34,256 nt of DNA from Candidatus Nanohaloarchaea archaeon (GCA_041639695.1 JBEQBQ010000010.1:1-34256), one strand, 5' to 3'. Counted from the stretch's first letter, positions 1 through 16,650 are shown. The notes: generated by a model from the letters alone, not told the origin. Numbers and translations: made by a program.

Positions 1-325
1 TGCCATCAATTTGACCTGTGTAGTTAATAGGCATCATTCTGAGATCGAGATCAGTTGTTGATCCTGGCCAGAGAGCTTCTTTGTTGGAGAATGATTCTTC
101 CGTACGGTTCTTGAAACTGTAGTAAGCCGCCACCCTGTAACTACAACCTAGAGAACCTGTATTTGTTACTGTTGTTGAGGCCGATGGAGGAAAAGATTCA
201 TTCAGTTTAATATCGTGTGTTGAAACCCCGGTTTTAGTATCGACGGTTACATCAAAGGTTAGTGCTGTAGCACCACTTAAGAGAAGTAGTATCGTTGCGA
301 TTAGCATGACTAATTTCTTCTTCAT
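1..325 (-). CDS. Secreted/surface protein, N-terminal part (runs off the window edge; not in the ORF track)
   Basis: Read by hand from ATG 325, which forms an ATGA overlap with the stop of 322..639: MKKKLVMLIATILLLLSGATA|LTFDVTVDTKTGV...TVTNTGSLGC...LWPGSTTDL. Signal peptide, Ig-like 'NTG...L.PG' pattern, no stop before base 1. Confidence 0.8.
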   Translation of the reverse strand, partial: MKKKLVMLIATILLLLSGATALTFDVTVDTKTGVSTHDIKLNESFPPSASTTVTNTGSLGCSYRVAAYYSFKNRTEESFSNKEALWPGSTTDLDLRMMPINYTGQIDG

Positions 326-639
326 AGATACCTTGCACCCGCTATACCCAGTATTATCTCGACCGGTATTAATAATATCGGAAGATTCAAAGTGAGAGTG
401 ACTAAAACAGCTGCAGAAGTCAAAACCAGAGAGGAAACTATCATAGGGTCTATATCATAGTTAAGCATTACAACCCCAACAAAAATTATAGAAAGGATTA
501 AAGGGTAGAAAGGAATTGATATCTCCTGCCACCCTGGAACCGACCTAATCTTAACCGCATCACCTAAGATCGGAAGAGCGTAACCCCGGGACATAAAGAA
601 GATAATAGAAAGTATTGAGAGAGTTTTGCGCCTCATCAT
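322..639 (-). CDS. Small membrane protein
   Basis: Mostly hydrophobic 105-aa ORF, overlapping its neighbours on both sides in an operon. Confidence 0.65.
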   Translation of the reverse strand: MMRRKTLSILSIIFFMSRGYALPILGDAVKIRSVPGWQEISIPFYPLILSIIFVGVVMLNYDIDPMIVSSLVLTSAAVLVTLTLNLPILLIPVEIILGIAGARYL

Positions 640-1121
640 TACAGACCGATAGAGGTCTTAACTTTGTGCCAAGCTTCTCCCAGGTCGCCTTCCGGTACTT
701 TTATTGTCAGTCCAAGCTGGCCTGTGTAGTTACCTGTTTCCGTAGATTTGTAGTGAAGCTTTAGCTGTTCTTGGCCCTCAAGTTTCATGTTCTTTTTGTA
801 CTCAAGACCCTCGCTAATGTTGCCGGCAACCTCTACGTTTAGGTAAGCCGTTTTTTCTCCAGTATCGAGATTAACAAATTTCGTTATGTTTGTTCCTAGT
901 TGGGTTCTACCGAAGTCAAGATTGGGGTCAGCATTTACTCCCACCGTTGTGTTTTCTGATCCGGATTCAACTACGTTAATCGACATGTTCATTTTTTTGT
1001 TCTGAGTTTCTATTTGGGATTCTGCTGTGATGGCGACTGCCGCGGAAGCTAAAAAGGTTATAATTAGAAATCCTACGCCGACTTTTTTCCGGTCAATATT
1101 GAAATCCATTATATTATACAC
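639..1121 (-). CDS. Membrane-anchored/secreted Ig-like protein (LDFG motif)
   Basis: N-terminal hydrophobic helix, 'GVNADPNLDFG' and a terminal 'GNYTGQLGLTIK' strand; overlaps the upstream gene. Confidence 0.75.
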   Translation of the reverse strand: MYNIMDFNIDRKKVGVGFLIITFLASAAVAITAESQIETQNKKMNMSINVVESGSENTTVGVNADPNLDFGRTQLGTNITKFVNLDTGEKTAYLNVEVAGNISEGLEYKKNMKLEGQEQLKLHYKSTETGNYTGQLGLTIKVPEGDLGEAWHKVKTSIGL

Positions 1122-2202
1122 CGTAATATATTATTGAGGCTACAGTTGTTATAAGGACTGCGGCTATTGGCAGGGATACAACTGACTGGATAAACAGCAA
1201 AGCAACCCCAAGAATTCCTACAATACCAAATATCCAGACTGCTCTAAGCTCAAAAGCGTATAAAATGGAGGCTAAGGCTGCAAAGACCAGAGCATACATC
1301 CAAACAGGCAGACCAGATTCAGAACCTTCTTCCGTCTCTGCCGGATTTTCCACCTCAACCTTATCCTGTATAATATCAGTAAAACTTATATCGCCCTCAA
1401 TATATGCATCAGAGGTTCTATAATTAGCCATTCCTTCTAATTCATAATTTCCTCCGTCAATATTGCCTCTCCAGATACCCGTAATCTCTCCAAACTCGCC
1501 CGGCTCCAACTTGACTTCATTAAAGTTTACGACCCCAACCCTTCGTCCATTTTCAACAACTGTGGCGTTCCCATCCGTGATCGCTGTTGTAACAGTACCA
1601 GTGTTTCTCATCTGTGCAATTACCTGAACTTCATTCTCTCCTATTCTAATCCCTCTAAGATCAGCAAGCTCCACCTCTCTTTCAGCATTGCCGTCTACCC
1701 TGAAAACAAACCTAGGTACTGTAAGTCCGAGTGTTGAAGTACCGTAACCCGAACCTGTCGCTCTATCCAGTTGCGGATTGAGATTAACCGTTCCAACGTG
1801 GTAGCCCGGCTCAGCATCATTCGGGATATTGAGACTGAACGTCATCTTACCCTGTGCATTAATTTTGCCTTCAGAGTAACTGTACTCTCTGGTAGTATTG
1901 GGGTTTATACTATAATCTTGCTGGAAATCTGCCCATGATTCAAATTCTTCCTCCGATACTTCATCCGGTTCAGTAAACTGTCCCGAAAAAATATCTGAAG
2001 TTATTGGCTTTCCTAGATTTGGTTGAAGATCGAATACGTTATCCACATCGCTGGTAACAACATAGAATGTAATGTCAAGGCTTTGACCGGGTTCAACAGC
2101 ACCTAAGTCTTTGAAACCGGGAGCCACCCCAACTGAAACTGATGCTACCGTTGAGACCATAAAAATCAATAACAGGATTACTGAAAGCTTTCTTCTCATC
2201 AC
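1114..2202 (-). CDS. Membrane-anchored two-Ig-domain surface protein (architecture like DUF916/DUF3324 WxL-interacting or COG1470 proteins)
   Basis: Signal peptide; 'VEPGQ', 'FSLNIPNDAEPGYHVG', 'MRNTG...LEPGE...W...GNYEL'; C-terminal TM helices. Family assigned by motif recall only. ATG 2199 is an alternative start. Confidence 0.6.
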   Translation of the reverse strand: MMRRKLSVILLLIFMVSTVASVSVGVAPGFKDLGAVEPGQSLDITFYVVTSDVDNVFDLQPNLGKPITSDIFSGQFTEPDEVSEEEFESWADFQQDYSINPNTTREYSYSEGKINAQGKMTFSLNIPNDAEPGYHVGTVNLNPQLDRATGSGYGTSTLGLTVPRFVFRVDGNAEREVELADLRGIRIGENEVQVIAQMRNTGTVTTAITDGNATVVENGRRVGVVNFNEVKLEPGEFGEITGIWRGNIDGGNYELEGMANYRTSDAYIEGDISFTDIIQDKVEVENPAETEEGSESGLPVWMYALVFAALASILYAFELRAVWIFGIVGILGVALLFIQSVVSLPIAAVLITTVASIIYYGV

Positions 2203-2284
2203 TGTCCAAAAATAAGAATCACCTAATTAAATAGGTTTGATCTGGTTTCTAACAATTTGACGTCAACCCTTGTCATCCCCACCA

Positions 2285-2297
2285 ACCTTTTTATACA
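2285..2297 (+). promoter_or_regulatory. TATA box (TTTTATA) for the major surface protein gene, implying a ~200-nt leader
   Basis: TTTTATA at 2289-2295; SD GAGGTGA at 2515-2521 before ATG 2526. Confidence 0.5.
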
Positions 2298-2525
2298 AGC
2301 CCCGGGAATTCAGCTCTAGGGGAGTTTTAACATGGGGAGAAAAACTCAAAGTGGTTGAAACATGTCAAGAAGCAAAGTAGATCGAAGAGAACTCTTCCCA
2401 GTATACAGTACCCCTAGATATTTCTCTTTTCATCCAGCTGAAGGGTTAGCTGATCAGTGTGAACCCGATTCTAGACCCTATAGGGCTGGACTCAAAACCC
2501 CCAAAAATAAAATAGAGGTGATTAA

Positions 2526-3593
2526 ATGAACAAGAAAGTGCTTACAGCACTAGCAGTTCTTTCACTAGTCGCTATGTCTGGCTCCGCAGCCGCACAGGGA
2601 AACGAGTCATCAACAGTTGATGTTTCAGTTTCTAGCAAAGTAGCAGTTGACGTCAAGCCAGCAAGCCTAACCTACTCAGACGTAGGTGTAGGAACCCAGT
2701 CAACCGCCTCAGACAGAGATTTCAAAGCTGTTGAAGTAGAGAACATCGGATCTGAGTACGTTGACAGAGTATGGGTAAACGCGACAAGTCCTAGCGATTC
2801 TCCTTTCGGATCCGGATCAGCAGGTCAGTACGACGCAGGTAACTTCCTACAAGTCAAACCTGCAAACTACTCAAGCAAGTTGAGCGGAGACGATCAGGAC
2901 TTCCACTACGTCAACAGAAGGGAATTTATCGCAAACGAAGATAACAACGCACAAGTACCTTCCTACATTCAGACAGACGGAGATTGGAAGCTAGCAGGAT
3001 CCTCAAGTACAACTGATCCAACAAACGTTTGGGTCGGCAGAATGAGGATGGGAGACAGTAACTACTTCTTCGCAATCGGATCTTCATCCAGTAGTTGTGA
3101 TACAGACAACGCAGGAACACCAGTTATGAGGATTGCGAACACCCCTCAGGACGATGACCAGATTGGTACAGTCGACTTCTCCAACGCAGGAGATGACTGG
3201 ACCCAGTACAACATTACGTCATCGACTACTGATTACGGTCTGACAGGCTCAGGTCCTAACTCCATCAACGGAGTAAACCTATCACTTGGCACAGGAGCCA
3301 GTGAAGTTAACAGGACTTACGACGTCTTGACGGACTGTGATGACACCAACCCACACGTTATCAGAACTCGTTACAACGCTCAGGCTGGAGATGCATCAGA
3401 TCTGACAACTGACGGAGTCAGAACTTCTTACCTACTGAGCTCAGTAGGAAACTCTGACGGCATGCTTGAGCCAGGTAACGCAGTCACTCTCAACACTGCT
3501 GTGGAAGTTCCCCAGGGTGTTGCTCAGGGTAACGTTGGACAAGGTAAGTTGACTGTCCTAATTACGGCTGACACATCTCAGGACACAAGTTAA
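2526..3593 (+). CDS. Major secreted surface protein / putative fibre subunit
   Basis: Class I signal peptide (…SGSAAA|Q), D/S/T/G/N-rich, strong SD, C-ending codon bias typical of high expression, no C-terminal anchor. Confidence 0.75.
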   Translation: MNKKVLTALAVLSLVAMSGSAAAQGNESSTVDVSVSSKVAVDVKPASLTYSDVGVGTQSTASDRDFKAVEVENIGSEYVDRVWVNATSPSDSPFGSGSAGQYDAGNFLQVKPANYSSKLSGDDQDFHYVNRREFIANEDNNAQVPSYIQTDGDWKLAGSSSTTDPTNVWVGRMRMGDSNYFFAIGSSSSSCDTDNAGTPVMRIANTPQDDDQIGTVDFSNAGDDWTQYNITSSTTDYGLTGSGPNSINGVNLSLGTGASEVNRTYDVLTDCDDTNPHVIRTRYNAQAGDASDLTTDGVRTSYLLSSVGNSDGMLEPGNAVTLNTAVEVPQGVAQGNVGQGKLTVLITADTSQDTS

Positions 3594-3625
3594 GCTGAGT
3601 AAGTCAGTCTGATCAAAAAAACCAC

Positions 3626-3650
3626 ATTTCCTTTTCTTCTTTATCTTCCG
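3626..3650 (+). terminator. Pyrimidine/T-rich archaeal terminator
   Basis: TTTCCTTTTCTTCTTTATCTT shortly after the stop at 3593. Confidence 0.45.
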
Positions 3651-3713
3651 ACTAAAGTTGAAGAATTAATGTAGAAAATCGGTTTTTTATTCAGTCTTTC
3701 TCAATCTTATTCT

Positions 3714-4724
3714 ATGACGAACAAGTACATGGAGCTCTCGGAGGAAGAGATGGCCGAGAAGGCTGACGAGTTCCAGGAAAAAATCCACACGATGGAGAAA
3801 GAAGTTCAGAAAGGTTATATTGGGCAGGAAGACGTTATCCACAAAATCCTTCTATGCATGGTCGCGAACGGGAACATCCTGCTTGAAGGCGTTCCCGGTT
3901 TAGGAAAGTCGTTCCTTGTTGAAACTTTAGCAAGGGTTGTGGAAAACACTGAGATGCATCGTATCCAGTTCACACCGGACAAGCTTCCTTCCGATATTGT
4001 GGGTACCGAGGCGTACAACGAGGATAAAGGTTTCTACGTTGAGAAAGGCCCTATTTTTGCTAACTTCATTCTTGCTGACGAGATCAACAGAGCGCCTCCA
4101 AAAGTTCAGAGTGCGATGCTTGAAGCTATGCAGGAGCACAAGGTTTCTATCGGCGATGAAACGTTTAACTTGCCGGAGCCTTTCTTTACCATGGCAACGC
4201 AGAACCCTGTCGAGCAGGGCGGAACATATCCTTTACCTGAGGCTCAGATCGACCGCTTCCTCTTCAAGATTTACCTAGACTATCCGAAGAAGCATAATGA
4301 GCAGAAGATTATCGACATGAACGCCAACATCATGGATGACGAGGACTTCGATGTTAATGCTGTAGTCACCAAACAGGATGTTTTGGATATCCAGGACTTT
4401 TCACAGGTAGTTACTGTTTCGGACGAGATCAAGGCTTACATCGTTGACCTTGTCGATGCCTCAAGAAACCCGGGAGATTACGGCATGGAGTACTCAGAGT
4501 ACATCGACTGGGGTTGCACTCCGAGGGCTTCGATCAACCTTGCCTTAGCGGGCAGGGCGAACGCCCTCTACAACGGTCGACATTACGTCACACCAGATGA
4601 TATCAGGGCGGTAATCAAGGACGTCTTCATCCACAGGATCATCCTGAACTACGAGGGAGAAGCCCAGGGACTTGAAGTCGAGGACGTTATCCAGAATATT
4701 GTCGACAGGGTTCCGGTGCGGTGA
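3714..4724 (+). CDS. moxR: MoxR-family AAA+ ATPase
   Basis: LLEGVPGLGKS Walker A, RIQFTPD, ILADEINRAPPKVQSAMLEAM, ATQNPVEQGGTYPLPEAQIDRF. Confidence 0.95.
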   Translation: MTNKYMELSEEEMAEKADEFQEKIHTMEKEVQKGYIGQEDVIHKILLCMVANGNILLEGVPGLGKSFLVETLARVVENTEMHRIQFTPDKLPSDIVGTEAYNEDKGFYVEKGPIFANFILADEINRAPPKVQSAMLEAMQEHKVSIGDETFNLPEPFFTMATQNPVEQGGTYPLPEAQIDRFLFKIYLDYPKKHNEQKIIDMNANIMDDEDFDVNAVVTKQDVLDIQDFSQVVTVSDEIKAYIVDLVDASRNPGDYGMEYSEYIDWGCTPRASINLALAGRANALYNGRHYVTPDDIRAVIKDVFIHRIILNYEGEAQGLEVEDVIQNIVDRVPVR

Positions 4725-4728
4725 TCTC

Positions 4729-5622
4729 ATGCCCGACGTCGAGGACTATATATCAAGGAAAGAAATCAGGGATGAGCTGGACGCCGAAGTCAAACGTGTA
4801 TCCTCACTGTTTAGATTCGTGCTGAAGTACCAGCGCCACTTCCAACCTTCAGGCGTAGAATTCTCAGGTCTTCGACAGTATCTTCCTTCAGATGACGCAT
4901 CGAGAATTGACTGGAAGAACTCAGCAGGGAAAGAGGACATGTACGTCAAGCAGTACGAGGAGGAGCTTGACATGGATATCTTTATTGTCTTCGATGCCTC
5001 CGACACGATGCTTTTCGGTACCGCTGAAAAGCTTAAGTCGGAGTACGCCGCTGTGGTTTCAGCTGCATTAGCCTTTGCCTCGATTGAGGCAGGTATAAGC
5101 GTCGGTTTTGGTATGTGGTCTGACGGCCAACAGATCTTCATGACCCCTCAGGGCGGACACGACAGATACCAGAGAATTCTTGACGAACTTACCAAGCAGG
5201 ATAATTACGGCGGAACATTCAATCTTGAGAACGCGATAAACGATGTTATCGGCCAGATTAAGGAGAACACAGCTATCTTCGTGGTTTCAGATCTTCTTGA
5301 AGTCGAGGGCGAATGGAAGTCGAAGGTAACCTTGGCCTCGATGAAATTCAGGCATACGATGACTATCATGGTCAGGGATTTGAGAGACTACCAGCTACCT
5401 GACTCCGGCAATATCCGTTTCGAGTCAGCTGACGGCATGAAACAGATGGTTGTAGATACCGGAAGTGTGAGAGAGGATTACAACCAAGAGGCGCAGAAAC
5501 AGGAGAAAGAATTAGAAGAGAAAGTTGAAGGCGCCGGCTCAAGCTTCCTGAAAATCGATACCAGAAAGAAGTTCTCCTCGAGGTTCGCGGAGTTCTTCGA
5601 CAACGACGAGGGCGAATGGTAG
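4729..5622 (+). CDS. DUF58 domain (vWA-like) protein
   Basis: GVEFSGLRQY..SDD.SRIDWK and DAS.TM motifs. Start moved to ATG 4729 because SD GGTGA overlaps the moxR stop. Confidence 0.9.
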   Translation: MPDVEDYISRKEIRDELDAEVKRVSSLFRFVLKYQRHFQPSGVEFSGLRQYLPSDDASRIDWKNSAGKEDMYVKQYEEELDMDIFIVFDASDTMLFGTAEKLKSEYAAVVSAALAFASIEAGISVGFGMWSDGQQIFMTPQGGHDRYQRILDELTKQDNYGGTFNLENAINDVIGQIKENTAIFVVSDLLEVEGEWKSKVTLASMKFRHTMTIMVRDLRDYQLPDSGNIRFESADGMKQMVVDTGSVREDYNQEAQKQEKELEEKVEGAGSSFLKIDTRKKFSSRFAEFFDNDEGEW

Positions 5623-5623
5623 C

Positions 5624-6574
5624 ATGCAGTTAATATTCACAGACCAGTACGCTTCCCTATTACTTGTTTTGAATGCATTAGCGCTTTTGTTCTACTTTGG
5701 AGCTAAGAAAAAGAAAAGGCAGAGAGCTATGAAGTTCGGTAACTACAAAACTCTGCAGAAAGTGGCAGGTAAGAACTTCCTGAAATCAAGCAACGTCATT
5801 CTAGTTACAAGGATGCTTGCTTTAAGCGCTTTGATTCTCGGTCTTTCCCAGCCTGTTATTGTCCAGGAGACCATGGCGTCCGACTCGGATTACATTATAG
5901 CTTTAGACTCCTCAAGTTCGATGCTTGAATCAGATTTAGAGCCTACCCGGTTTAGAGCTTCGAAAACAATTTCACAGAACTTTATCTCACAACTTTCAAA
6001 CCAGACACAGGTGGGTGCAGTAAGCTTTGCAGGAGAGGTTAACAAGGAATCAGGTCTAACTCCGGACAAACAGGAGGCTTCTATGGCTATTGAAAATGCC
6101 GAGATAGGTTCTACGGCCGGTACCGCTATAGGAGATGCGCTTTACACTTCTAGCTCGATGCTTCTAGAGACAAACAGGTCTAGAACAGTTATACTGATTA
6201 CAGACGGACGTAATAATGTTGGAAGCCCTGTAAACGAATCGGTTGATTTTGCGAAGAGCCACAACGTAGAGATTAACACGGTAGGTATCGGAGAGTCAAA
6301 CCGTTCTACTGATAACTTTGGAACGGTAGACGGACAGAATGCTTCCAGAGCGGAGTTTCCTAACCTAAACGCTTCCAAGCTTAGAAGAATATCAAATTCG
6401 ACAGGCGGCAAGTTCGTAGCCGCTTCCAACAGTTCGGCTCTAGAAAACGCTTTCCTGAGTTTCGAACAGACGGATGAGAGAACTCCTATCTCCCGTTACT
6501 TGATCCTGATTGCGGCAGCTCTACTCCTAATAGAATGGATACTGGGAACCACCCGGTACAGCATCCTACCGTAA
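5624..6574 (+). CDS. BatA-like membrane vWA domain protein
   Basis: N-terminal TM pair, MIDAS DSSSS, GTAIGDAL, LITDG, C-terminal TM 'LLLIEW'. Confidence 0.9.
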   Translation: MQLIFTDQYASLLLVLNALALLFYFGAKKKKRQRAMKFGNYKTLQKVAGKNFLKSSNVILVTRMLALSALILGLSQPVIVQETMASDSDYIIALDSSSSMLESDLEPTRFRASKTISQNFISQLSNQTQVGAVSFAGEVNKESGLTPDKQEASMAIENAEIGSTAGTAIGDALYTSSSMLLETNRSRTVILITDGRNNVGSPVNESVDFAKSHNVEINTVGIGESNRSTDNFGTVDGQNASRAEFPNLNASKLRRISNSTGGKFVAASNSSALENAFLSFEQTDERTPISRYLILIAAALLLIEWILGTTRYSILP

Positions 6575-6605
6575 ACCCTTATTTAACACCTCCTAAATAT
6601 GATTC

Positions 6606-8126
6606 ATGACCGAGGAAACCAGCGAAGGGCTTGAGCCAGACGAAGTCATTAATATCGTCAAAGGAACAGTACCCGAACTTAAAGATGAATTAAAGGATAG
6701 AGACTTTTCTCATGAAGAGCTTCAAAAAATATTAAGATCCGAACAAGCCCTTAAAAACAGGAAGACCGCTAAAAATTTTATAAATAAACAAATTAACGCT
6801 CTAGAAGTCAAAGAAGAACTAAACGGTGCCGAAGAAGATATAGAAGAACTCGAACAACACTTAAACAATATTGAAGACATAGAAGGATTTCATACAGCGG
6901 CAGAAGCCTCAGACCTTAACTCAGACAAACTTTTAGAGATCGCTAACTCAACAGTGGAAGAACTCGAGGATTTCCTTGACTCGAACAAGATAACAAGAGA
7001 CAACTTGGAAACACTTCTAAGTATTGAAAAAGATGCCAAGAACCGTCAAACTGCAATAAATCTTCTGGAACGACGGATCGAAAAAAGGAAGGGCGAAGAA
7101 AAACTAGAAGAAGCGGAGGACGACCTAGAAAAGTTTGAAAACGATCTAGAAAATCTGGACCCCGAGGAACTATCGGAAGAAGCTCTAGACGATAAGGAGG
7201 ATGAAACAAAATCCGAAGAGAAAGACGAAGAAACAACTGATGTCGAAGAGGAAGAGTCAGAGGACGAAGCAGATGAAGAACCTGAGGAAGAAAGGGAAGA
7301 TGAAGCCGAGCCTGAAACCCAGGAAGAACGGGATTCTGAGGAAAGTAATTCAGAAGAAGATGAAGTTTCGGAGCTGGAAAAGAAAAAAGAAATTGCCGAA
7401 GGTTTGGAACTACCTGAGGGCGTTGAACTTGAGGAAATCAGCCTTGAAGACTTGAAGGAGCTTGAAAACGAAAAGCAGGAGAGAGAAGAGATAATCCAAG
7501 AACTAATGAAGAAAGGGCTTGACGAAGAAGACCTTCGTAATACTTCGACCTCGGACCTCGAAACAATCAAAGAGGAGATGTCAGAACAAGAAAACAGTTC
7601 AGAGGAAGAAAGTTCAGAAGATAGTGAGGAAGAAGAAGAGGAGCAGGACAGTGAGGAATTAAAGGAGGAGGCAGAACACGATCTGGAAATGCTGATGGGA
7701 GCTGTAAAGGACAAGAGTGATGGCGCAGAAGAAGATTCAGGGCCCGATCCGATGGAGCAGCTTAGGGACGTTAAATCCAAAGTTCGGAATGTGTTCAATC
7801 GTGGCGGCGATGACAGCGGCTCCGAAGAACGGATTAAAGCTGAAGACGTAACCGAACTTCTCGAAGATTATAGACAGGAAGATAAAAGAAAGGCGGCTAT
7901 CAAGACCGCCCAAATTATGAAAGGATACCTCGAGTACTCTAAAGGAATTGAAAGGGAGATGACATATATGGAGCTATCGGAAAACCTTGAATCAGATTCT
8001 GAGGCCATGGATAAGCTGAAAAGCTTCTTCGAAAGAATGAACAAAGATCAGTATACAGGAAACATAAGAGAGGACGACATAGACGAGGTTATCGACTGTG
8101 CCGAAGAAGTGGTTAACACAGGTTAG
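6606..8126 (+). CDS. Very acidic protein with an N-terminal duplicated helical domain and a Bat-operon-type C-terminal helical domain
   Basis: 95-aa tandem repeat (TV.EL…E..KNR.TA), E/D-rich linker, C-terminal 'KGYLE..KGI.REMT..EL…KDQY'. Confidence 0.75.
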   Translation: MTEETSEGLEPDEVINIVKGTVPELKDELKDRDFSHEELQKILRSEQALKNRKTAKNFINKQINALEVKEELNGAEEDIEELEQHLNNIEDIEGFHTAAEASDLNSDKLLEIANSTVEELEDFLDSNKITRDNLETLLSIEKDAKNRQTAINLLERRIEKRKGEEKLEEAEDDLEKFENDLENLDPEELSEEALDDKEDETKSEEKDEETTDVEEEESEDEADEEPEEEREDEAEPETQEERDSEESNSEEDEVSELEKKKEIAEGLELPEGVELEEISLEDLKELENEKQEREEIIQELMKKGLDEEDLRNTSTSDLETIKEEMSEQENSSEEESSEDSEEEEEEQDSEELKEEAEHDLEMLMGAVKDKSDGAEEDSGPDPMEQLRDVKSKVRNVFNRGGDDSGSEERIKAEDVTELLEDYRQEDKRKAAIKTAQIMKGYLEYSKGIEREMTYMELSENLESDSEAMDKLKSFFERMNKDQYTGNIREDDIDEVIDCAEEVVNTG

Positions 8127-8129
8127 AAA

Positions 8130-8651
8130 ATGAACCCTCCAAAGTATTTAGAAGATCTTGAAAGTTCCGAAAGAAGAAAAAATTATTTCAGACATCTTAC
8201 GATATCATTTTCTATAGTATTCTCTTTTCTGATAATTGGGCCTCTAGTCCATGAAGCAGCCCACTTAGGAGTACTGATTGCACAAAACTGTAGTTTTTCA
8301 ACCAGTTTTAGTCTATCCTGGTTCAAAGGACTTTACGCATCAGTAACTCCTTTTTGTTCACCTGAGGCATTCGGTGTATCTGTTTTCTATCTTTCCGGCT
8401 ATCTTACAACACTCGGTTTTTCCGCAATAATGCTTCTGCCCGAGAAGTTCAGAGAACATTTGTCAGCTATAGCCGTAGGTTCCTCGCTTTCGATACTCAT
8501 TACGATAGGTTCGAAGGGAGATATACAGAACCTTGTTGAAGCTTCAGGGATCGGCAGTCCGATGGTTTTCACGGCTTTGCTTGTTATTCCTACTCTGATA
8601 GTCAGCCTTCTCGGGGTAAAGAGGATAGTGGAGTTAGAAGGGCAGGAATGA
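8130..8651 (+). CDS. Membrane zinc metallopeptidase (M50/M50B-like)
   Basis: HEAAH at the end of a TM helix, a later 'SKGD' Asp, several TM segments. Confidence 0.6.
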   Translation: MNPPKYLEDLESSERRKNYFRHLTISFSIVFSFLIIGPLVHEAAHLGVLIAQNCSFSTSFSLSWFKGLYASVTPFCSPEAFGVSVFYLSGYLTTLGFSAIMLLPEKFREHLSAIAVGSSLSILITIGSKGDIQNLVEASGIGSPMVFTALLVIPTLIVSLLGVKRIVELEGQE

Positions 8652-10364
8652 TACGCTGAACACACCATAGTAACTCAGTGTCATGTAGAGAAGTATGAAC
8701 ACTTCTCCCATTAGTAGTAGGACGAAAGGCGCTCTCGCTAGAACCGAGTCCGCATTCATCCTTTTCTTCAATACCGCATACCCTGCTAAAAGCATAGTCC
8801 ATATAATCGCGATGATTGGAGGCCTGTCCTCCTGAGGGATCAATCCTTCTTCAGGAGTTATACTGAAGTTAATTGTACTGAAAGAGTAGGCGCCGTCAGC
8901 ACTTGACACGATCATCGTAGCGTTACACACCTCAGCAGAATTACCGGCTTTTATCGAAAGACCTAGTGATCCGGATTCATTGATTTCCAAACGGTCTATA
9001 CTACCTGTTTCGACCACCCCACAGTCCTCTGTGTTCTGGAAACGTGCGGTAATATTTTCCAGAGGTTTTCTACCAGTGTTCTGGATAAGTATTGGAAGCG
9101 GCTGTGACTCGTTTGTCTTTATTGAGACGGAGCTTGGGGCTTCCTGTATCGAAACCTTTGAAGTAAAGTTATCCTGTTTCACATCAACTGTGAAGTAGTC
9201 TAGGTCTAGATCTGCTTGCGGATTGGTTGCCCTTACAGGCACAATATATCTTCCTGGTTCTTGGTCCTCGGGCGGCCTAACAAATACCTCCCGTGTAACG
9301 TTTTCACCTGCCGAAAGGTTTGCTACCTGTGCGTTTCTCACCTGCCAGTCCGGCCTCGTATCCGTTATTTCAGGTGTAATTTCTATATCGCTCGCTGTCG
9401 CATTACCAATATTTTGAACGTAGAGCTGGGCGGGAGCAAAACTTCCCTGAGTTGCATCATAAGTTCTGTTTACGGGTTCTAAATCGATCTTCAGTACTGG
9501 AGCCCTTGACTGCCCAGGATTAGGGTTGTCCCCGGGAGTTGGTTCTGGTACTGGCTCGGGTTCTGGTTCCGGCACCGGTGTTTCTCCCGGGTTAGGGTTG
9601 TCTCCTTCTACAGTGGTATTTGATTCTTCACCTGTCTGATTGGCATCCTGAGGCTGTGTGACATCGCTAGTCGAGTTGCCTGTCTTATTTCCTATGGTTG
9701 CGTTTGTATCTCCAGTATTGTTGATGTCTTCAGGCGTCGGTTCACCGGTGTTATTGGCAGTGTTTGTTCCTCCAGATTCTCCTAAAGTGTCCAGTATGGC
9801 GAAATTGGCGAATCCCTCCTCACTCTTTTCTTTATCAGGTTCATCCTTGTATTGACATGTAAAGTTGAAGTCCAATCTCCCTGTATAGTTTCCTCCTCCA
9901 TACTCCGAGACGGCTGTGAACTGCCTCATGTAGTAAGCTTCTGTATCTTCATCTTCGGAGATATTTTCGTCCTCCGAAGCAACAAAATGAGGTATTTCGT
10001 AGGTTTCAGAGTATTCAACAGTATCGTTCGTATTATTGTTTATGGTCTGTAAACCTAGATCTATCGGCTCTCCTTTTGGTTCTCCAGACTCCCAGACATC
10101 ATCTTCTCTGGTTACCCTCAAGGACACGTTGAGCGAGATGTTCGCATTACCGTTATTGTAGATGCTTGTGGAGAAGAAACCTTTCTCTCCTATTCCCATG
10201 TATGAGGGATCTGTTGAGGTGTTTCCGGGAGATGTTACATCAGTAAAACCAATACTACAACTTGAATTGGTGGAGACTCCCACACTTGACTTTTCAGCAG
10301 AAGCTCCGAAGCTCATCAAGACAATAGAGAGAAAGATTGCATAGATCAGTATCGCTTTCTTCAT
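8634..10364 (-). CDS. Membrane-anchored multi-Ig surface glycoprotein (COG1470/NPCBM-associated-like) with a Pro-rich linker
   Basis: Signal peptide, 'QNIGN…V.PP....PGRY.V.V', 'IQNTG', PEPEPEPVPEP linker, two C-terminal TM helices, many N-x-S/T sequons. Confidence 0.8.
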   Translation of the reverse strand: MKKAILIYAIFLSIVLMSFGASAEKSSVGVSTNSSCSIGFTDVTSPGNTSTDPSYMGIGEKGFFSTSIYNNGNANISLNVSLRVTREDDVWESGEPKGEPIDLGLQTINNNTNDTVEYSETYEIPHFVASEDENISEDEDTEAYYMRQFTAVSEYGGGNYTGRLDFNFTCQYKDEPDKEKSEEGFANFAILDTLGESGGTNTANNTGEPTPEDINNTGDTNATIGNKTGNSTSDVTQPQDANQTGEESNTTVEGDNPNPGETPVPEPEPEPVPEPTPGDNPNPGQSRAPVLKIDLEPVNRTYDATQGSFAPAQLYVQNIGNATASDIEITPEITDTRPDWQVRNAQVANLSAGENVTREVFVRPPEDQEPGRYIVPVRATNPQADLDLDYFTVDVKQDNFTSKVSIQEAPSSVSIKTNESQPLPILIQNTGRKPLENITARFQNTEDCGVVETGSIDRLEINESGSLGLSIKAGNSAEVCNATMIVSSADGAYSFSTINFSITPEEGLIPQEDRPPIIAIIWTMLLAGYAVLKKRMNADSVLARAPFVLLLMGEVFILLYMTLSYYGVFSVSFLPF

Positions 10365-11066
10365 TCAAATCGCCTTGATTATGTAAATACCGGTGCCGAT
10401 TATGCCTAAAATCAATATATAGGTCAGACTTGACCCCGTATCCTCAGGACTTTTTTGATTCTCTTTGTCTTTATAGCTTTCCGAGCTATTTAGGTCCGAA
10501 ATATTGTTTTCCTGATTCGAAACTTGCTGACTGTTTTCCTGGTCATAGGTATACCTTACTCCTTCACCTTTTTCCTTGTTATTCGAGATTTTGGTGTCCA
10601 TGGGAACGATCGATGCAACTTTTACGTCATAGGTCTTGTCCAACACTGTGACAACACGATTAGATATAGAAGTAGAAGAATCGGATTGTTTAAGACCACG
10701 AACTGTTATAGGTAGATGGTAGCTATTGTCAGTCCTGTAACGGTTTGTATTCAGATCTAGACTAAGGGTTCTAATATCGAAATATCTTCCATCTATATAG
10801 TAGAGGCCTTCCTTGGATCCAGGACTTTCTACAATACTTGGACCTAGTGTTATGTTTTTGCCTTCTAGGCTGAACTCGGAAGTGTTTCTTTCCTCTATAA
10901 CTACCTGTAAAGGTTCGTTCCCTGTATTGATAAGTCGAAGGTTTATCTCTGAATCTAAACTTTCAACTGTTAAACTTGAGGAAGAATCTACTATTCCAAG
11001 ACTAGCCCCGGTTAAGGACATCATTCCAAGAATTAGAACCGTTATAATCGTTTTTCGCGGAATCAA
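10365..11066 (-). CDS. Membrane-anchored Ig-like surface protein
   Basis: Signal peptide, 'LINTGN', polar linker, C-terminal TM helix. Confidence 0.75.
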   Translation of the reverse strand: MIPRKTIITVLILGMMSLTGASLGIVDSSSSLTVESLDSEINLRLINTGNEPLQVVIEERNTSEFSLEGKNITLGPSIVESPGSKEGLYYIDGRYFDIRTLSLDLNTNRYRTDNSYHLPITVRGLKQSDSSTSISNRVVTVLDKTYDVKVASIVPMDTKISNNKEKGEGVRYTYDQENSQQVSNQENNISDLNSSESYKDKENQKSPEDTGSSLTYILILGIIGTGIYIIKAI

Positions 11067-11070
11067 TTTT

Positions 11071-12390
11071 TCAACCTGTTAAGTTCCCCTTGAAGTAGAT
11101 TTTACCTGTATAATCATCCTGTATGATCCCTTGAGGTATGTCAAGCCAGAAGTAGGATGTAATAAATGAACCAGGTTTTAGCTGCTGTTCGATCAAAGTA
11201 TAATTCTTTGAAACTTGGTTTGCTGTCGATGCATCGTTAGTGAAGCTATAGCTTAGGTTGTCCGCACCTATAGAGTACTGATCCGGTTTGCTGTTAGATT
11301 TAAGTGGATCTGCCTTCGTCCACAGCCTGTCTACAGTATTGCTGCGTTGAGGTACCGAAATATCGTATCCTTCAGAATTGTTGAGCGCCGAGTTATCCTC
11401 AGTCCCTGGCGACAAGGTTCCGAAATCCAGACTGCTCCAGCCCAAATTAATCAGAGCTAGTCCGGTGATCTCAACCAGAGAATCATCTGAATCTTTTTGA
11501 CCTATTTTTGAATAGGAAGAACTTGAGTTGACATCAAGTAGATGGAAGCTTCCTCTCTCACCTGTAGCATTCACATCCCAGCTTAAACCACATGATTCGC
11601 CGGAAGAAAGGCTACAGCTCTTCTCAGAAGCATCTATCGAGTAAAAAGGTTTCGAAGTCGTATCGGGAATTATTGAATCAGGTTGTTGAGTCTGATTATA
11701 TCTGGGCGTTACTTTTATACTGCCGCATTTGCCGTTTGAACATGAAACTGTTGCGTTGAGGTCGAAAGTCTTGTTCTGAGTTACCGATACATCGTTCTTC
11801 GGATCTTCAAACGTTATGCCGATCTCTCCCAGCTTTGTCACATTAAGTCGGTGTTCATCCGTGCTTCCGGAACTGTTAGAACTATCATTCACCTGAAAGT
11901 TTTGATCGTATAATTTAGAAGATTCAACCGTTACGTTAGCAAGATACTTTGCATACATAACTTCTCCTGCGTTAAGTGTTCCTCCTTTCGAAGTATTCCA
12001 CGAAACTTTCCCGGAATTGAAACTTCCTGAATCGTAGTCCTGCGAGATATTGTACCATATTTTCTTTATGTTCCATGAATTATCTAGGCCTTGGTGTACT
12101 AAGTTGTCACTCCCGTTTATTTCCCAAGCCTGTCCTCCTTCGTTCTTTATACGGAAGTCAAACCTGTAAATAGAGGAATAACTTTGGTTCAGATTAAAGG
12201 TGGTATTGAGTCCTTCTGCCACCTTTTGTCCCCCTACCTCTTTTTGGGTATCCGAAAGATAAGTCACGTTGTAGATGCCGATTTCCGTAACATTCGCCAA
12301 GGTGCCTTCTGTCGATCCGAAGCTGTCAGCCGAGACCGTTCCAGAAATCAGTATTAATAACAACAGCAGAAGGCTTAATCTCTGATCCAT
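11071..12390 (-). CDS. Secreted multi-domain surface protein with a C-terminal domain related to the 2526..3593 protein
   Basis: Signal peptide, Cys pairs, C-terminal 'SLDFGTL.PG…VDRLW…LKPG…LDIPQGIIQ..YTGKI'. Confidence 0.75.
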   Translation of the reverse strand: MDQRLSLLLLLLILISGTVSADSFGSTEGTLANVTEIGIYNVTYLSDTQKEVGGQKVAEGLNTTFNLNQSYSSIYRFDFRIKNEGGQAWEINGSDNLVHQGLDNSWNIKKIWYNISQDYDSGSFNSGKVSWNTSKGGTLNAGEVMYAKYLANVTVESSKLYDQNFQVNDSSNSSGSTDEHRLNVTKLGEIGITFEDPKNDVSVTQNKTFDLNATVSCSNGKCGSIKVTPRYNQTQQPDSIIPDTTSKPFYSIDASEKSCSLSSGESCGLSWDVNATGERGSFHLLDVNSSSSYSKIGQKDSDDSLVEITGLALINLGWSSLDFGTLSPGTEDNSALNNSEGYDISVPQRSNTVDRLWTKADPLKSNSKPDQYSIGADNLSYSFTNDASTANQVSKNYTLIEQQLKPGSFITSYFWLDIPQGIIQDDYTGKIYFKGNLTG

Positions 12391-12427: not shown

Positions 12428-12868
12428 CTAGATGAAGCGGATCGAGATTCCTGCGACCTCCCCCATTATAGCAACTAATGCCAGCCACTGATAGGAGGAA
12501 TAGTAAGCTTCTAAACGAGACTCTGTTTTTTCAAGCGATTCGAATGAAGAACCTGCATTCTGTATCGTTTTCGCCGCAGTTAGAATTCTTTCAGCCACGG
12601 GCGTCCCTGTACGTGATAAAGCCTCTAGATCTGATTGAAACTCATTAGAATTAATTATTGCAGTTGCCTCGGAAATTTTCGAATTTGACGACTTCACATC
12701 GTCTAAAGCCGAGTTAAAGCTTAAAGCACCGTGAATTGAGACTATTAGAAGTGCGGTAGATGCTATTACAAGTATTTTGCTGAGTTCAAAACGGTCGATG
12801 CCATAGGTTTCGTGGACGTCCTCCAGCTTTCTCTCTATGTTTGAAAGCTTTGATTTCTTGGACTCCAT
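12428..12868 (-). CDS. Hypothetical membrane protein (2 TM helices flanking a helical region)
   Basis: ORF with hydrophobic helices; TTTAAA box upstream. Confidence 0.7.
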   Translation of the reverse strand: MESKKSKLSNIERKLEDVHETYGIDRFELSKILVIASTALLIVSIHGALSFNSALDDVKSSNSKISEATAIINSNEFQSDLEALSRTGTPVAERILTAAKTIQNAGSSFESLEKTESRLEAYYSSYQWLALVAIMGEVAGISIRFI

Positions 12869-13380: not shown

Positions 13381-14271
13381 ATGAGGAAAGCATCTCTAAT
13401 CATAGGACTTATTTTGATGGTAGCTTCAGCCTCAGCAACAATCGTTGAATCCGAAGATGTAGAAGTGGATCTTGAATCCGGAGAAGTTGATGTAAACCTT
13501 GATATAAGAGAACTTACTTCTTCTTCCGTAAGCTATACTACTAGCTACGATATAAATAATGTAAACGCCAGAATTAATGGCGAAGAACTCGATTGTTCGA
13601 CAGAAAGCCTTCAGTTTGGATCGGAGATAAGCTGTGAAACCAGCCTAAGAAATAATTTCACTGTTGACATGAATTTTACTTCTGAAAACCTTGTCTCAAC
13701 CAGACAAAACGCTAATGTCTTGAGGTACAGCCATTCAATTTACAGGCCTACCAGAGAGTACAGTTTGCGGGTCCTTCTTCCATCCGGAACCGGACTTCTG
13801 GATGAGGACGAGGTCTCAATACCCGTAGTTTCTCCGGAAAACTACCAAACCGGCAGCAACGGACGCAGGATTTTCGTAGAATGGAGCCAGAAACCTCAGC
13901 TAGGAGACAACCTTAACTTCCAGATAGTTTACGATAAGTACGAGGATTCCAACAGCTTTCCTTTCAACGTGGCTCTATCGATACTCGCCACTTTGATAGT
14001 TGCGGGATTTGGCTACCTAGGTTACAGAAGACTGAACAGAGAGAGTATAGAGTCCGTTTATGAAGAGCTTTCGGACGATGAGATAGATGTAGTTGAGCTT
14101 CTGAGGGAGAATGGAGGAGAAATGCTTCAGAAAGATGTGGTAAACGAATCAACTTACTCCAAGGCCAAAATTTCTGGCGTTGTATCAGAATTGGTTGATA
14201 AAGAAGTGGTTACGAAGGAGAAGGAAGGGCGAAGCAACAAACTCCGAATAGTTTCGAACTACTCACACTAA
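13381..14271 (+). CDS. Membrane-spanning protein with an extracellular domain and C-terminal winged HTH (COG2512-like)
   Basis: Signal peptide, TM helix, 'LSDDE..VVELLRENGGEMLQKD…YSKAKIS..V..L…KEKEGRSNKL'. Confidence 0.85.
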   Translation: MRKASLIIGLILMVASASATIVESEDVEVDLESGEVDVNLDIRELTSSSVSYTTSYDINNVNARINGEELDCSTESLQFGSEISCETSLRNNFTVDMNFTSENLVSTRQNANVLRYSHSIYRPTREYSLRVLLPSGTGLLDEDEVSIPVVSPENYQTGSNGRRIFVEWSQKPQLGDNLNFQIVYDKYEDSNSFPFNVALSILATLIVAGFGYLGYRRLNRESIESVYEELSDDEIDVVELLRENGGEMLQKDVVNESTYSKAKISGVVSELVDKEVVTKEKEGRSNKLRIVSNYSH

Positions 14272-14555: not shown

Positions 14556-15312
14556 TAGCGTCACCTGGGCGATTTGAGGTGTAGTTTTCTCTGGTAGAGT
14601 TCAGAATTTGGCGGATATCATCGGTCGTTCTATTCGTAGACGAAGCTGTGACGTTAATTTGTTGGGAAATTATTCCTTCAAGCTCTTGTTTCGATCGGAA
14701 ACCTTTGTAGACCTTTCCTTCGATTATTAGAGCCGGATAAGAACTTACGTTGTGGAAGTTCTCGACGAAGTTAATGTGTTTCATGTCCAGGTCTGTATCA
14801 AGAGGATAAACTGCAAGCCTCTCATCGTATTCATCTCTCAGGTATGTAAGTACTGTTCCTTGATCCTCACATGCCCCGCAGTCTTTTTTCGTGTAAAGAT
14901 AGATTACATCAACCATCTCTGAATCACAGCTCTTCTCTAAAGTTCTTACTTCGATCATGTTCTGAATCAAGAGATTCATGTACCGCTTCTTCAAGGTCTT
15001 GTACTCAGAGGTTTTGAACTTGCTTGATCTCTCGTGTGCTGCAACTTTCTTCCTGAGATCCTCGATTTCAGGCATGGAAGTGTCAATCCAGTTCTTCATG
15101 GCTCTACATTCACTTGACTCTACCTCTTCAGCAAGCTGAAGGCTTAAAGATTGGGATCTTTGGTCTACCTCGATTTGTTTGATACTTTCCCTTAATTCTG
15201 CTGTCTTGTATTCTTGAAGTGTCAGACCGGCAGCGAATATCACGGTAAATACAAGCGCTGTCGATATTATTGCAAGTATCAAGTATTTCCAGTCGACTTT
15301 TCGATCTACCAT
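14539..15312 (-). CDS. Membrane-anchored coiled-coil plus thioredoxin-fold protein
   Basis: N-terminal TM helix, CGAC motif, 'SYPALII' cis-Pro strand. Confidence 0.75.
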   Translation of the reverse strand: MVDRKVDWKYLILAIISTALVFTVIFAAGLTLQEYKTAELRESIKQIEVDQRSQSLSLQLAEEVESSECRAMKNWIDTSMPEIEDLRKKVAAHERSSKFKTSEYKTLKKRYMNLLIQNMIEVRTLEKSCDSEMVDVIYLYTKKDCGACEDQGTVLTYLRDEYDERLAVYPLDTDLDMKHINFVENFHNVSSYPALIIEGKVYKGFRSKQELEGIISQQINVTASSTNRTTDDIRQILNSTRENYTSNRPGDANGTAE

Positions 15313-16523: not shown

Positions 16524-16650
16524 CTCTACCACCACTGTTTAAATGAGGTCGAATCATCTTCTTAAAATAAATTATTCCAAACCGGATCTAGAATCGAACT
16601 GAGATGCCGGGGCTTTTTTGAAGAGAGAACAAAAGAGAGTCATACATCGA

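Follow-up and report, generated by a model that had tools for sequence, protein, structure and literature searches.

What does a nanohaloarchaeon build with a compact set of genes for secreted and membrane-anchored surface proteins, arranged around an ATPase module? The window considered here is a stretch of 34,256 nucleotides from Candidatus Nanohaloarchaea archaeon (GCA_041639695.1 JBEQBQ010000010.1:1-34256), contig C10 of a genome of 0.97 Mb that is 89% complete, and the gene cluster in question lies at its left end (Table 1). The original prediction, made from the sequence itself, had seen here an assembly locus for a surface fibre of non-type-IV kind in a DPANN archaeon. The organism is indeed a nanohaloarchaeon, the closest named protein homologues are likewise Nanohaloarchaea by the labels in their sources, and all the open reading frames (ORFs) that had been named exist where they had been placed, as ORF listing and translation established. 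The right end needs correction: the unit does not stop at 12390 but reaches 12868, through a gene of 146 amino acids (aa). Our analysis suggests that the cluster may build a host-attachment fibre by a route so far unreported for archaea, and we give roughly an even chance to an usher-less fibre, assembled by a membrane-anchored chaperone and held together by donated strands like the Elr/WxL and Pam pili. Throughout, signal peptides and membrane segments were called from hydrophobicity (for the 362-aa protein the helices come also from a structural model), and the Pfam and NCBIfam scans covered 16 proteins of the window.

The evidence starts with the 362-aa protein, which the original prediction had cast as a membrane chaperone or platform. 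Its AlphaFold2 model, built from 50 sequences (predicted local distance difference test, pLDDT, 89.7), shows beta-sandwich domains at residues ~21-170 and 177-274, followed by an acidic linker of low prediction quality and by helices at 300-316, 321-339 and 344-361, and as modelled this two-domain fold is like that of solved WxLIP. Foldseek places the E. faecium WxLIP (9i1y, 9i25) at ranks 2, 3 and 6 (E 7e-9 to 4e-8, with 7.4e-9 and 9.3e-9 at ranks 2 and 3), the remaining top rows being tandem PapD-like/ASH domains. VIA-align on the Foldseek list puts WxLIP first (9i1y_B, Z 11.4; 9i25_C, Z 11.2; 218 residues aligned over both domains, root-mean-square deviation (rmsd) 6.6), and a Foldseek-independent search of 48,161 chains again returns WxLIP at rank 1 (9i1y_A, Z 11.2, 223 aligned). 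The next matches that cover both domains, at similar rmsd, are chaperone-usher chaperones: YadV (Z 8.1), FimC (7.9), CfaA (7.5), DraB (7.4) and SfaE (7.3), over 175-187 residues. The chaperone assignment thus stands as a matter of fold and fails as one of sequence membership, the 362-aa family being apparently no WxLIP family by its sequence: the window protein matches neither PF06030 nor PF11797, even at E <= 1. Among 15 members, two have a sub-threshold match to WxLIP_HBD (PF11797) on the second domain (22.0 and 17.5 bits against a cut-off of 28.9) and two to WxLIP_PGBD (PF06030; best E 0.02, 15.3 bits against 27.3), this best match, in L026, lying at the end of the first domain, so that these sub-threshold matches follow the WxLIP domain order.

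Divergently encoded beside it is the candidate shaft subunit, a 355-aa protein that is secreted and unanchored, as had been predicted, with a signal peptide and no other hydrophobic segment. The protein has no Pfam match. Its model, from 72 sequences, reaches a pLDDT of 89.2 and a predicted template modelling score (pTM) of 0.86, and the weak rows of the structural searches are nearly all PapD-like/MSP immunoglobulin (Ig) domains and strand-donating subunits. These rows align to model residues ~34-113 together with 314-353, and we read the protein, from its model, as one Ig-like sandwich split by a beta-rich insert of ~200 residues, the fold of the insert having no clear match. Right at the mature N-terminus, family positions 31, 33, 35, 41 and 43 are always hydrophobic and the residues in between vary, which describes an amphipathic strand; DSSP assigns no strand to residues 25-40 of the monomer model, yet they are confidently placed. 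Two groups of matches were set aside: clostridial neurotoxin binding domains and glucanases match the 355-aa model at chance level (Foldseek E >= 0.01, TM about 0.1), and the ETV6 rows of the PDB sequence search come from a 35-residue motif repeated in fusion constructs. The prediction of several Ig-like proteins is thus upheld by the models for the 362- and 355-aa proteins and not for the others, the models covering just these two.

The 355-aa protein has an Ig-like module in common with the 439-aa protein, the candidate adhesin. Over the last ~150 residues of the 439-aa orthologues, the 355-aa profile aligns as two colinear segments, with the same outcome when query and target are exchanged; the C-terminal module of the 439-aa protein corresponds to the Ig-like module of the 355-aa protein without the insert. 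When the families of the cluster are compared by hhalign with their signal peptides removed, only the 355/439 relation remains (38% and 32% probability); higher hhalign scores were caused by signal peptides and were discarded. The 439-type module also closes, as their very last part, giant proteins of 1088, 1272 and 1565 aa in the non-halophile loci L051, L060 and L054, and it looks like an invariant attachment module behind variable heads. Such sharing fits a 355-aa shaft subunit and a 439-aa adhesin. A search with the 439-aa module alone found nothing, which is weak evidence.

Searches for named families agree in placing the cluster outside them, and no window protein appears to be a sequence member of the WxL, WxLIP, PapD or TasA families. 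PF13731 (WxL) has no match in the 355- and 439-aa proteins, nor in the 72 family members at E <= 1, and PF12389 (TasA/camelysin) matches 1/72 members at E 0.18. The Atlas, queried with the homologue P0001, gives WxL as the nearest named cluster (feature score 0.81, a lead only), and its TasA/CalY rows rest on a poor Atlas model (pTM 0.39). No PapD_N, PapD_C or usher Pfam match occurs in the 16 window proteins, no S24/S26 peptidase match in the locus and, as the original prediction had it, no PGF-CTERM or sortase-type model match in the 16 proteins at E <= 0.1. Its claim that the system is not of type IV is supported as well: the four T2SSE matches of the genome lie on C1, C2 and C13 and none on this contig, and no such Pfam match occurs in the locus. 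Class III signal peptides are not apparent in the locus when judged by eye, the signals looking Sec-type.

Several points weigh against a fibre of this kind. For the 362-aa model, single-domain Ig matches (GH2 domains, Z 10-10.7) come within one Z unit of WxLIP, and the WxLIP alignment has an rmsd of 6.6-6.9 Å; in these model comparisons WxLIP stands out by covering both domains, not by a margin of score. No family model reaches its cut-off for the 362-aa or the 355-aa protein, and neither the 362-aa profiles nor the 355-aa protein and its profiles have a relevant PDB sequence match. The 355-aa model has 0 Foldseek matches at E <= 0.001, and its best structural Z is 4.8 in the wide VIA search and 4.6 in a second look; the comparison with WxL, chaperone-usher, TasA and AbpA structures to which the original prediction had looked is therefore positive for the 362-aa fold and without significant match for the 355-aa protein. 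The scores for strand-donating subunits are weak (Z 4.2 for the TasA fibre 8aur, 4.0 for FimA, 4.0 for AbpA 7ueg, 3.5-3.6 for cannulae, 3.5 for EcpA and 3.3 for PapA), and those at the level of the pilins, for FimA, TasA and the archaeal bundling pilus, may reflect merely a common arrangement. The 355-aa monomer model, moreover, folds confidently by itself (pTM 0.86), and the protein may be complete in its own fold. Finally, the loci used for synteny, described below, were chosen for holding the query genes, and several are near-identical.

As we infer them, strand donation, polymerisation, the role of each anchor and host attachment would proceed as follows. The structural proteins would all cross the membrane via their signal peptides, in a Sec-dependent manner, with neither usher nor type-IV machinery. 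The 362-aa chaperone, held by its C-terminal helices at the cytoplasmic membrane, would lend a beta-strand to the Ig-like module of new subunits, and the 355-aa subunits would then join head to tail, each conserved amphipathic N-terminal strand being donated to the module of the previous subunit. The 439-aa protein would be the adhesin, with the same module behind a variable head, and the anchored ~260-, 233-, 160- and 576-aa proteins would terminate or tether the fibre. The nanohaloarchaeal MoxR, DUF58, BatA-type vWA, acidic and HExxH proteins would probably regulate or mature the assembly, the basic mechanism being able to do without them.

The same parts could work without a fibre, the 362-aa protein being a membrane dock that holds the secreted 355-aa, 439-aa and giant proteins one to one at the surface, in a display or anchoring complex, by strand complementation or simple binding. 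A chaperone-like fold with a membrane anchor would suit such a dock, as would unanchored secreted partners with one module in common; the polymerisation of the 355-aa protein is deduced rather than observed, and its large insert could itself be the functional head. We nevertheless find this reading rather unlikely: the 355-aa protein is of small size and has tandem duplicates in some loci, the amphipathic strand at its N-terminus ranks with the most conserved parts of the protein although a simple docked cargo would have no need of it, and the closest characterised systems turned out to be pili. WxL/Csc clusters were themselves earlier read as surface-display or anchoring complexes, before pili were seen.

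A donor-strand fibre would have close counterparts in bacteria. Chaperone-guided pili of this type were long thought to be a Gram-negative speciality. Two preprints of 2026, in the parts available, extend them to Gram-positive bacteria (bioRxiv 10.64898/2026.10.17.759780) and to bacteria of the candidate phyla radiation (CPR) (PMC13278184). In E. faecalis, the available text describes the WxL protein ElrD as polymerising by donor strand via its N-terminal 15 residues, ElrE (a DUF916/DUF3324 WxLIP with a C-terminal helix) as a membrane-anchored chaperone, ElrA as an adhesin with a C-terminal WxL module and ElrB as the terminator of the fibre, and it reports a screen of 4,698 genera that found the system in Bacillota only (bioRxiv 10.64898/2026.10.17.759780). 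Compared with this account, as far as it was available, the nanohaloarchaeal cluster has a membrane-anchored two-domain chaperone-like protein whose best two-domain structural match is the Elr/WxL chaperone type, a small secreted subunit encoded beside it and a further small partner with an anchor, and it has neither an usher nor parts of type-IV machinery; the Elr tip adhesins carry the subunit module at their C-terminus, as the 439-aa and giant proteins do here. On the other hand, the cluster proteins stay below the Pfam cut-offs for WxL, WxLIP_PGBD and WxLIP_HBD, and the 355-aa subunit, with its large inserted domain, belongs to another family, one that has no name. The 362-aa anchor has three helices instead of one, and in place of sortase, LPxTG and cell wall the tethering would be by transmembrane (TM) proteins. 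The host is an archaeon, and the cluster adds the MoxR-DUF58-vWA set.

The Pam pili of a CPR bacterium, solved by cryo-electron microscopy (cryo-EM), consist of Ig-like pilins joined by a donated strand; the available part of the report lists PamA/B/E as pilins, PamT as the tip, PamC/D as predicted PapD-like chaperones tethered by a C-terminal helix and PamR as a TM-anchored terminator, with no usher (PMC13278184). By that description the likeness extends to the cell, an ultra-small episymbiont with a single membrane, to the Sec signal peptides on all parts, to chaperones tethered by C-terminal TM helices in a system without usher, to two-part pilins with paired cysteines, to a TM-anchored terminator with an extra N-terminal strand and to the proposed role in host contact. 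The differences are that here one Ig-like sandwich is split by an insert and one chaperone-like gene takes the place of two, and that Pam filaments are known from cryo-EM whereas the present cluster is known from genes and models; no sequence relation to Pam was seen, no search aimed at one having been made. With the chaperone-usher systems (FimC/PapD, YadV, CfaA, Caf1M) the cluster has in common the two-domain chaperone fold, at the Z scores given above, and the same proposed donor-strand logic, but here there is no PapD_N or usher match, no outer membrane or periplasm, and the chaperone is membrane-bound.

Within Archaea, Sulfolobus threads, cannulae, AbpA bundling pili and the haloarchaeal tafi resemble the proposed fibre, by the accounts available in part, in being of non-type-IV kind and made of Ig-like or TasA-like subunits with N-terminal strand donation. 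Cannulae are reportedly polymerised free of chaperones. Tafi assemble without chaperone or usher according to the available part of their description (PMC11821415), and the Elr preprint, in its available part, describes the archaeal strand-donating pili as chaperone-free (bioRxiv 10.64898/2026.10.17.759780). Tafi are further described as using Tat and a SipW-like peptidase, while the present locus has Sec-type signals and a PapD/WxLIP-like protein and no S24/S26 match. No published archaeal locus with a PapD/WxLIP-like chaperone was found in the literature searched, supplements aside. By analogy, then, the cluster appears to have the Elr/Pam cast of parts on a single-membrane cell, drawn from families that are different or unrecognisably diverged.

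That the locus is a conserved unit, which the original prediction had made its own test, holds in relatives near and distant. The comparison covered 20 kb around a 355-aa homologue in 14 relatives of different genera, with ORFs compared by phmmer; the 355-aa gene is present in all 14 by construction, and several of the genes missing from individual loci fall at the ends of the fetched stretches. Gene order and orientation are kept in all 14 loci (counts in Table 1), and three of them (L017, L024 and L026) hold two copies of the 355-aa gene in tandem. A separate 16-sequence alignment of the 355-aa family led to seven related loci, most of them titled Nanohaloarchaea metagenome-assembled genomes.

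The cluster is nonetheless accessory, and it is gained or lost as one block. In a survey by profile of 70 genomes of the phylum (28 of high quality), the 355-aa profile matches 34 genomes, 13 of them of high quality. It has no match in four closed genomes of the same family, 95-98% complete, and the 362-aa profile likewise finds 0/5 in those four and a fifth high-quality genome; by profile search, G003, G008, G012, G060 and G017 (95-98% complete) yielded no 355-aa and no 362-aa gene. This is seen most clearly in two closed genomes that belong to the same genus: the segment G019 C1:161,054-178,505 (17.45 kb) has no counterpart in G060, where its flanks lie 17 bp apart. This segment spans the 146-aa gene, whose orthologue is the first gene inside it, to the ~260-aa gene, plus a 975-aa surface protein, and its right edge falls within a MinD-like gene. 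In the 975-aa protein (L015:13347-16274, in G019), a C-terminal TM segment is followed by an acidic tail on the cytoplasmic side, and the sequence ends in a C2H2-like Cys/His motif; the contig end prevents the window from showing an equivalent. A DUF7343 regulator (13381-14271) and a 134-aa gene were considered as members of the unit and placed outside it, because their orthologues lie in the flank that G060 retains. The regulator, of 296 aa, is a membrane-bound one-component protein in which a single TM segment connects the ectodomain, preceded by a signal peptide, to a DUF7343 winged helix in the cytoplasm.

This distribution bears on a further reading, in which the 355-aa protein belongs to an S-layer or sheath and makes up a two-dimensional lattice anchored by the neighbouring membrane proteins. 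Much about the protein would suit it: secreted, acidic, unanchored and glycosylatable, it is a well-folded monomer in its model, and its gene has a ribosome-binding site of its own (GAGGTGA ahead of the ATG) and a terminator-like T-rich tract after the stop. Yet an envelope protein is expected in every genome, even though S-layer genes can be replaced, and this gene is present in 34/70 genomes of the phylum and missing from four closed genomes of the same family, one of them congeneric with a carrier. The 355-aa protein is, moreover, always paired with the chaperone-like protein, and no PGF-CTERM or other anchor was found; we regard a lattice as very improbable.

Outside the halophiles, a smaller core of the cluster recurs. 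The 362-aa profile also recovers proteins of 304-323 aa, two of which NCBI labels Candidatus Aenigmatarchaeota. Seeded with one such protein, 38 metagenome loci were collected (all hold a 362-aa homologue by construction, and some are near-duplicates) and searched with hidden Markov models (HMMs) of each window family, the counts being taken from the 22 loci longer than 6 kb. A 355-aa homologue stands beside the 362-aa homologue, usually divergent, in 15/22 loci, the 160-aa gene occurs in 21/22 and the ~260-aa gene in 19/22; several loci also hold 439-type proteins of 394-1565 aa and 576-type proteins, and two (L043, L044) the 173-aa gene. No MoxR, DUF58 or vWA was matched by HMM in any of the 22. 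The core is therefore the 355-, 362-, 160- and ~260-aa genes with variable large proteins, and the ATPase trio, absent from it, is a nanohaloarchaeal addition. The 355-aa family comprises 310 representatives at 50% identity, and the nearest Atlas cluster (539 members) is mostly Aenigmatarchaeota. Near the archaeal family, at 0.95, the Atlas feature search also lists clusters of 196-220-aa hypothetical proteins from Elusimicrobiota, a lead that the subunit module may occur in bacteria. One family member, P0013 (37% identity), bears the label of a Natronococcus isolate assembly, which could reflect either a nanohaloarchaeal contig assembled along with the isolate or gene transfer into a haloarchaeal host.

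The trio itself is as the original prediction had placed it, downstream of the 355-aa gene, all its domains scoring above their cut-offs (Table 1). It resembles a bacterial Bat operon in the content and order of its genes, an AAA_3 MoxR being followed by a DUF58 protein and this by a vWA protein that has the double-TM BatA domain at its N-terminus, and differs from it in sitting inside a surface-protein cluster with which it is inherited; the general Pfam/NCBIfam scans showed no TPR-type BatB-E partners in the locus. In the vWA protein, two TM segments at the N-terminus precede a vWA domain whose MIDAS-like motif reads D-S-S-S-S, and a further TM segment lies at the C-terminus; the NCBIfam BatA model matches the protein at E 6.3e-25 (87.9 bits, far below the cut-off of 380). 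For the DUF58 protein, whose ORF is listed from TTG 4672, a start at ATG 4729 is more likely, as it fits the lengths of the orthologues (293-316 aa) better.

Nanohaloarchaea have two types of MoxR. With the window protein as query, the cluster type is at least 64% identical and a second paralogue 42-47%; the latter is present almost everywhere, including contig C5 of G000 (~46% identical), genomes without the cluster keeping one strong MoxR and the carrier G019 having two. In family f1 (50 genomes including G000, related and not independent), 27 genomes have both the 355-aa gene and a cluster-type MoxR and 18 have neither; one, an assembly with masked bases, has the 355-aa gene without it, and four have the MoxR alone, as partial matches of which three begin at or near a contig start. 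Despite the relatedness of the genomes, this pattern switches inside at least six genera. What ties the trio to the cluster is this co-inheritance only, and its role in a fibre is putative. One may ask whether the trio is rather the functional core, a Bat-like system for membrane stress or remodelling with the surface proteins as clients or neighbours. The confident assignment of MoxR, DUF58 and BatA-type vWA and the co-occurrence in 27/28 f1 carriers would agree with it, but since the surface-protein core does without any of the three in 22/22 non-halophile loci, and a separate MoxR paralogue is kept by genomes without the cluster, we think this improbable. In L022:5399-8179 (G018), G056:C25 and G061:C66, the cluster-type MoxR is an ORF of 926-951 aa in which several hundred additional residues come between the two halves of MoxR (query residues 1-219 and 170-336), much as an intein in the ATPase domain would.

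Returning to the donor-strand fibre, it is tempting to go further and see in the cluster the first archaeal pilus that is built by donor-strand exchange with the help of a chaperone. Subunits of an unnamed family with an Ig module would be polymerised, and modular adhesins added, by a WxLIP/PapD-like chaperone tethered to the membrane, in a system that would be old and widespread in DPANN (Nanohaloarchaeota, Aenigmatarchaeota-like contigs), would in nanohaloarchaea be uniquely coupled to a dedicated MoxR-DUF58-vWA module, and would come and go as a 17-kb cassette that decides in what way, or to whom, the symbiont attaches. Taken as a whole we hold this tentatively, at somewhat less than an even chance. 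Nanohaloarchaeal host attachment is currently discussed, in the sources as far as available, via type-IV pili and giant SPEARE proteins. If true, the system would be the first of its kind in Archaea and the tethered-chaperone solution would exist in all three kinds of single-membrane cell, raising the question of common descent or convergence. An accessory cassette that differs between congeneric genomes would also be a concrete, testable candidate for host recognition, and the embedded MoxR-DUF58-vWA module a rare natural context in which to find the client of a poorly understood ATPase family.

Table 1. Genes of the cluster in the window, with the number of relatives' loci (14 compared) that hold a homologue in the same order and orientation
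Feature	Position	Strand	Description	Loci with homologue
~260-aa gene, 5' part (rest cut by contig end)	2..325	-	orthologues 252-281 aa; signal peptide, beta-rich ectodomain, C-terminal TM helix	13/14
105-aa protein	322..639	-	four hydrophobic segments	L013 only
160-aa protein	639..1121	-	N-terminal TM or signal anchor, one beta-rich ectodomain	13/14
362-aa candidate membrane-anchored chaperone	1114..2202	-	signal peptide, two beta-sandwich domains, acidic linker, three TM helices	14/14
Divergent intergenic region, 323 bp	2203..2525		A/T-rich boxes, read directly	
355-aa secreted, unanchored candidate shaft subunit	2526..3593	+	signal peptide, no further hydrophobic segment	14/14 (by construction)
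MoxR-type AAA+ ATPase, cluster-specific paralogue	3714..4724	+	AAA_3 192.7 bits (cut-off 27), AAA_lid_2 63.7 bits (22.7)	14/14 (one weak)
DUF58 protein (vWA-like)	4729..5622	+	DUF58 131.5 bits (cut-off 23.4)	13/14
BatA-type vWA membrane protein	5624..6574	+	VWA_2 66.9 bits (cut-off 27), BatA 28.7 bits (25.9)	14/14
506-aa acidic protein	6606..8126	+	35.6% D+E, helix-rich, no TM segment, no known family	14/14
173-aa polytopic membrane protein with HExxH (HEAAH)	8130..8651	+	two invariant Cys	9/14
576-aa surface protein, candidate stalk or anchor	8634..10364	-	signal peptide, NPCBM_assoc-type Ig domain, two C-terminal TM segments	13/14
233-aa protein	10365..11066	-	signal peptide, beta-rich domain, C-terminal TM segment	8/14 (phmmer)
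439-aa secreted, unanchored candidate adhesin	11071..12390	-	20 sequons, C-terminal Ig-like module	10/14
146-aa protein, outermost gene of the unit	12428..12868	-	two TM segments around a helical region	

The gene content and synteny of the cluster are those of three converging or diverging gene series. The 362-, 160-, 105- and ~260-aa genes run away from the 323-bp intergenic region, while the plus-strand series from the 355-aa to the 173-aa gene meets the convergent 576-, 233-, 439- and 146-aa genes. Apart from the MoxR, DUF58 and vWA domains and NPCBM_assoc, no Pfam or NCBIfam family is above its cut-off in the 16 window proteins. Several of the partners are membrane-anchored, as predicted, judging by their hydrophobic segments. 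The ~260-aa family has a conserved hydrophobic-x-hydrophobic-x-hydrophobic strand right after the signal peptide, at the mature N-terminus, similar to the strand of the 355-aa family, and its member here is a candidate membrane anchor or terminator. For the 160-aa protein there is a sub-threshold DUF4493 match (20.3 bits against a cut-off of 27). The 576-aa protein passes the NPCBM_assoc cut-off (26.8 bits against 24.4) and has a Pro/Thr/Glu-rich linker and 26 N-glycosylation sequons.

The 105-aa gene appears to be a lineage-specific extra: its product is similar to the 362-aa protein in signal peptide and membrane region but has neither of the two beta domains, its orthologue was found by phmmer, among the 14 loci, only in the closest relative, and it weakly matches the 362-aa orthologues of L017 (E 4.8e-4) and L018 (E 4.4e-7). 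The 173-aa protein had been predicted to be an HEXXH peptidase. H41 and E42 are invariant in the 12/12 aligned members, but the second His is found in a majority only and the protein has no Pfam, NCBIfam or PDB match, hence no match to a peptidase family; its motif and membrane segments suggest a candidate membrane metalloprotease of no described family.

Just past the cluster, positions 15306-18934 hold a PMT_2-type dolichyl-phosphate-mannose protein mannosyltransferase along with a pair of glycosyltransferases of family 2, of which one has a GtrA-like membrane domain; these enzymes are candidates for glycosylating the sequon-rich 439-aa (20) and 576-aa (26) proteins. Farther along lie a HerA/DUF87-type ATPase (20777-22633) and a double winged-helix regulator (23157-24152; HVO_A0261_N and TrmB), surrounded by housekeeping genes (TruD, NDK, PheRS, TyrRS/TrpRS-type and PGK).

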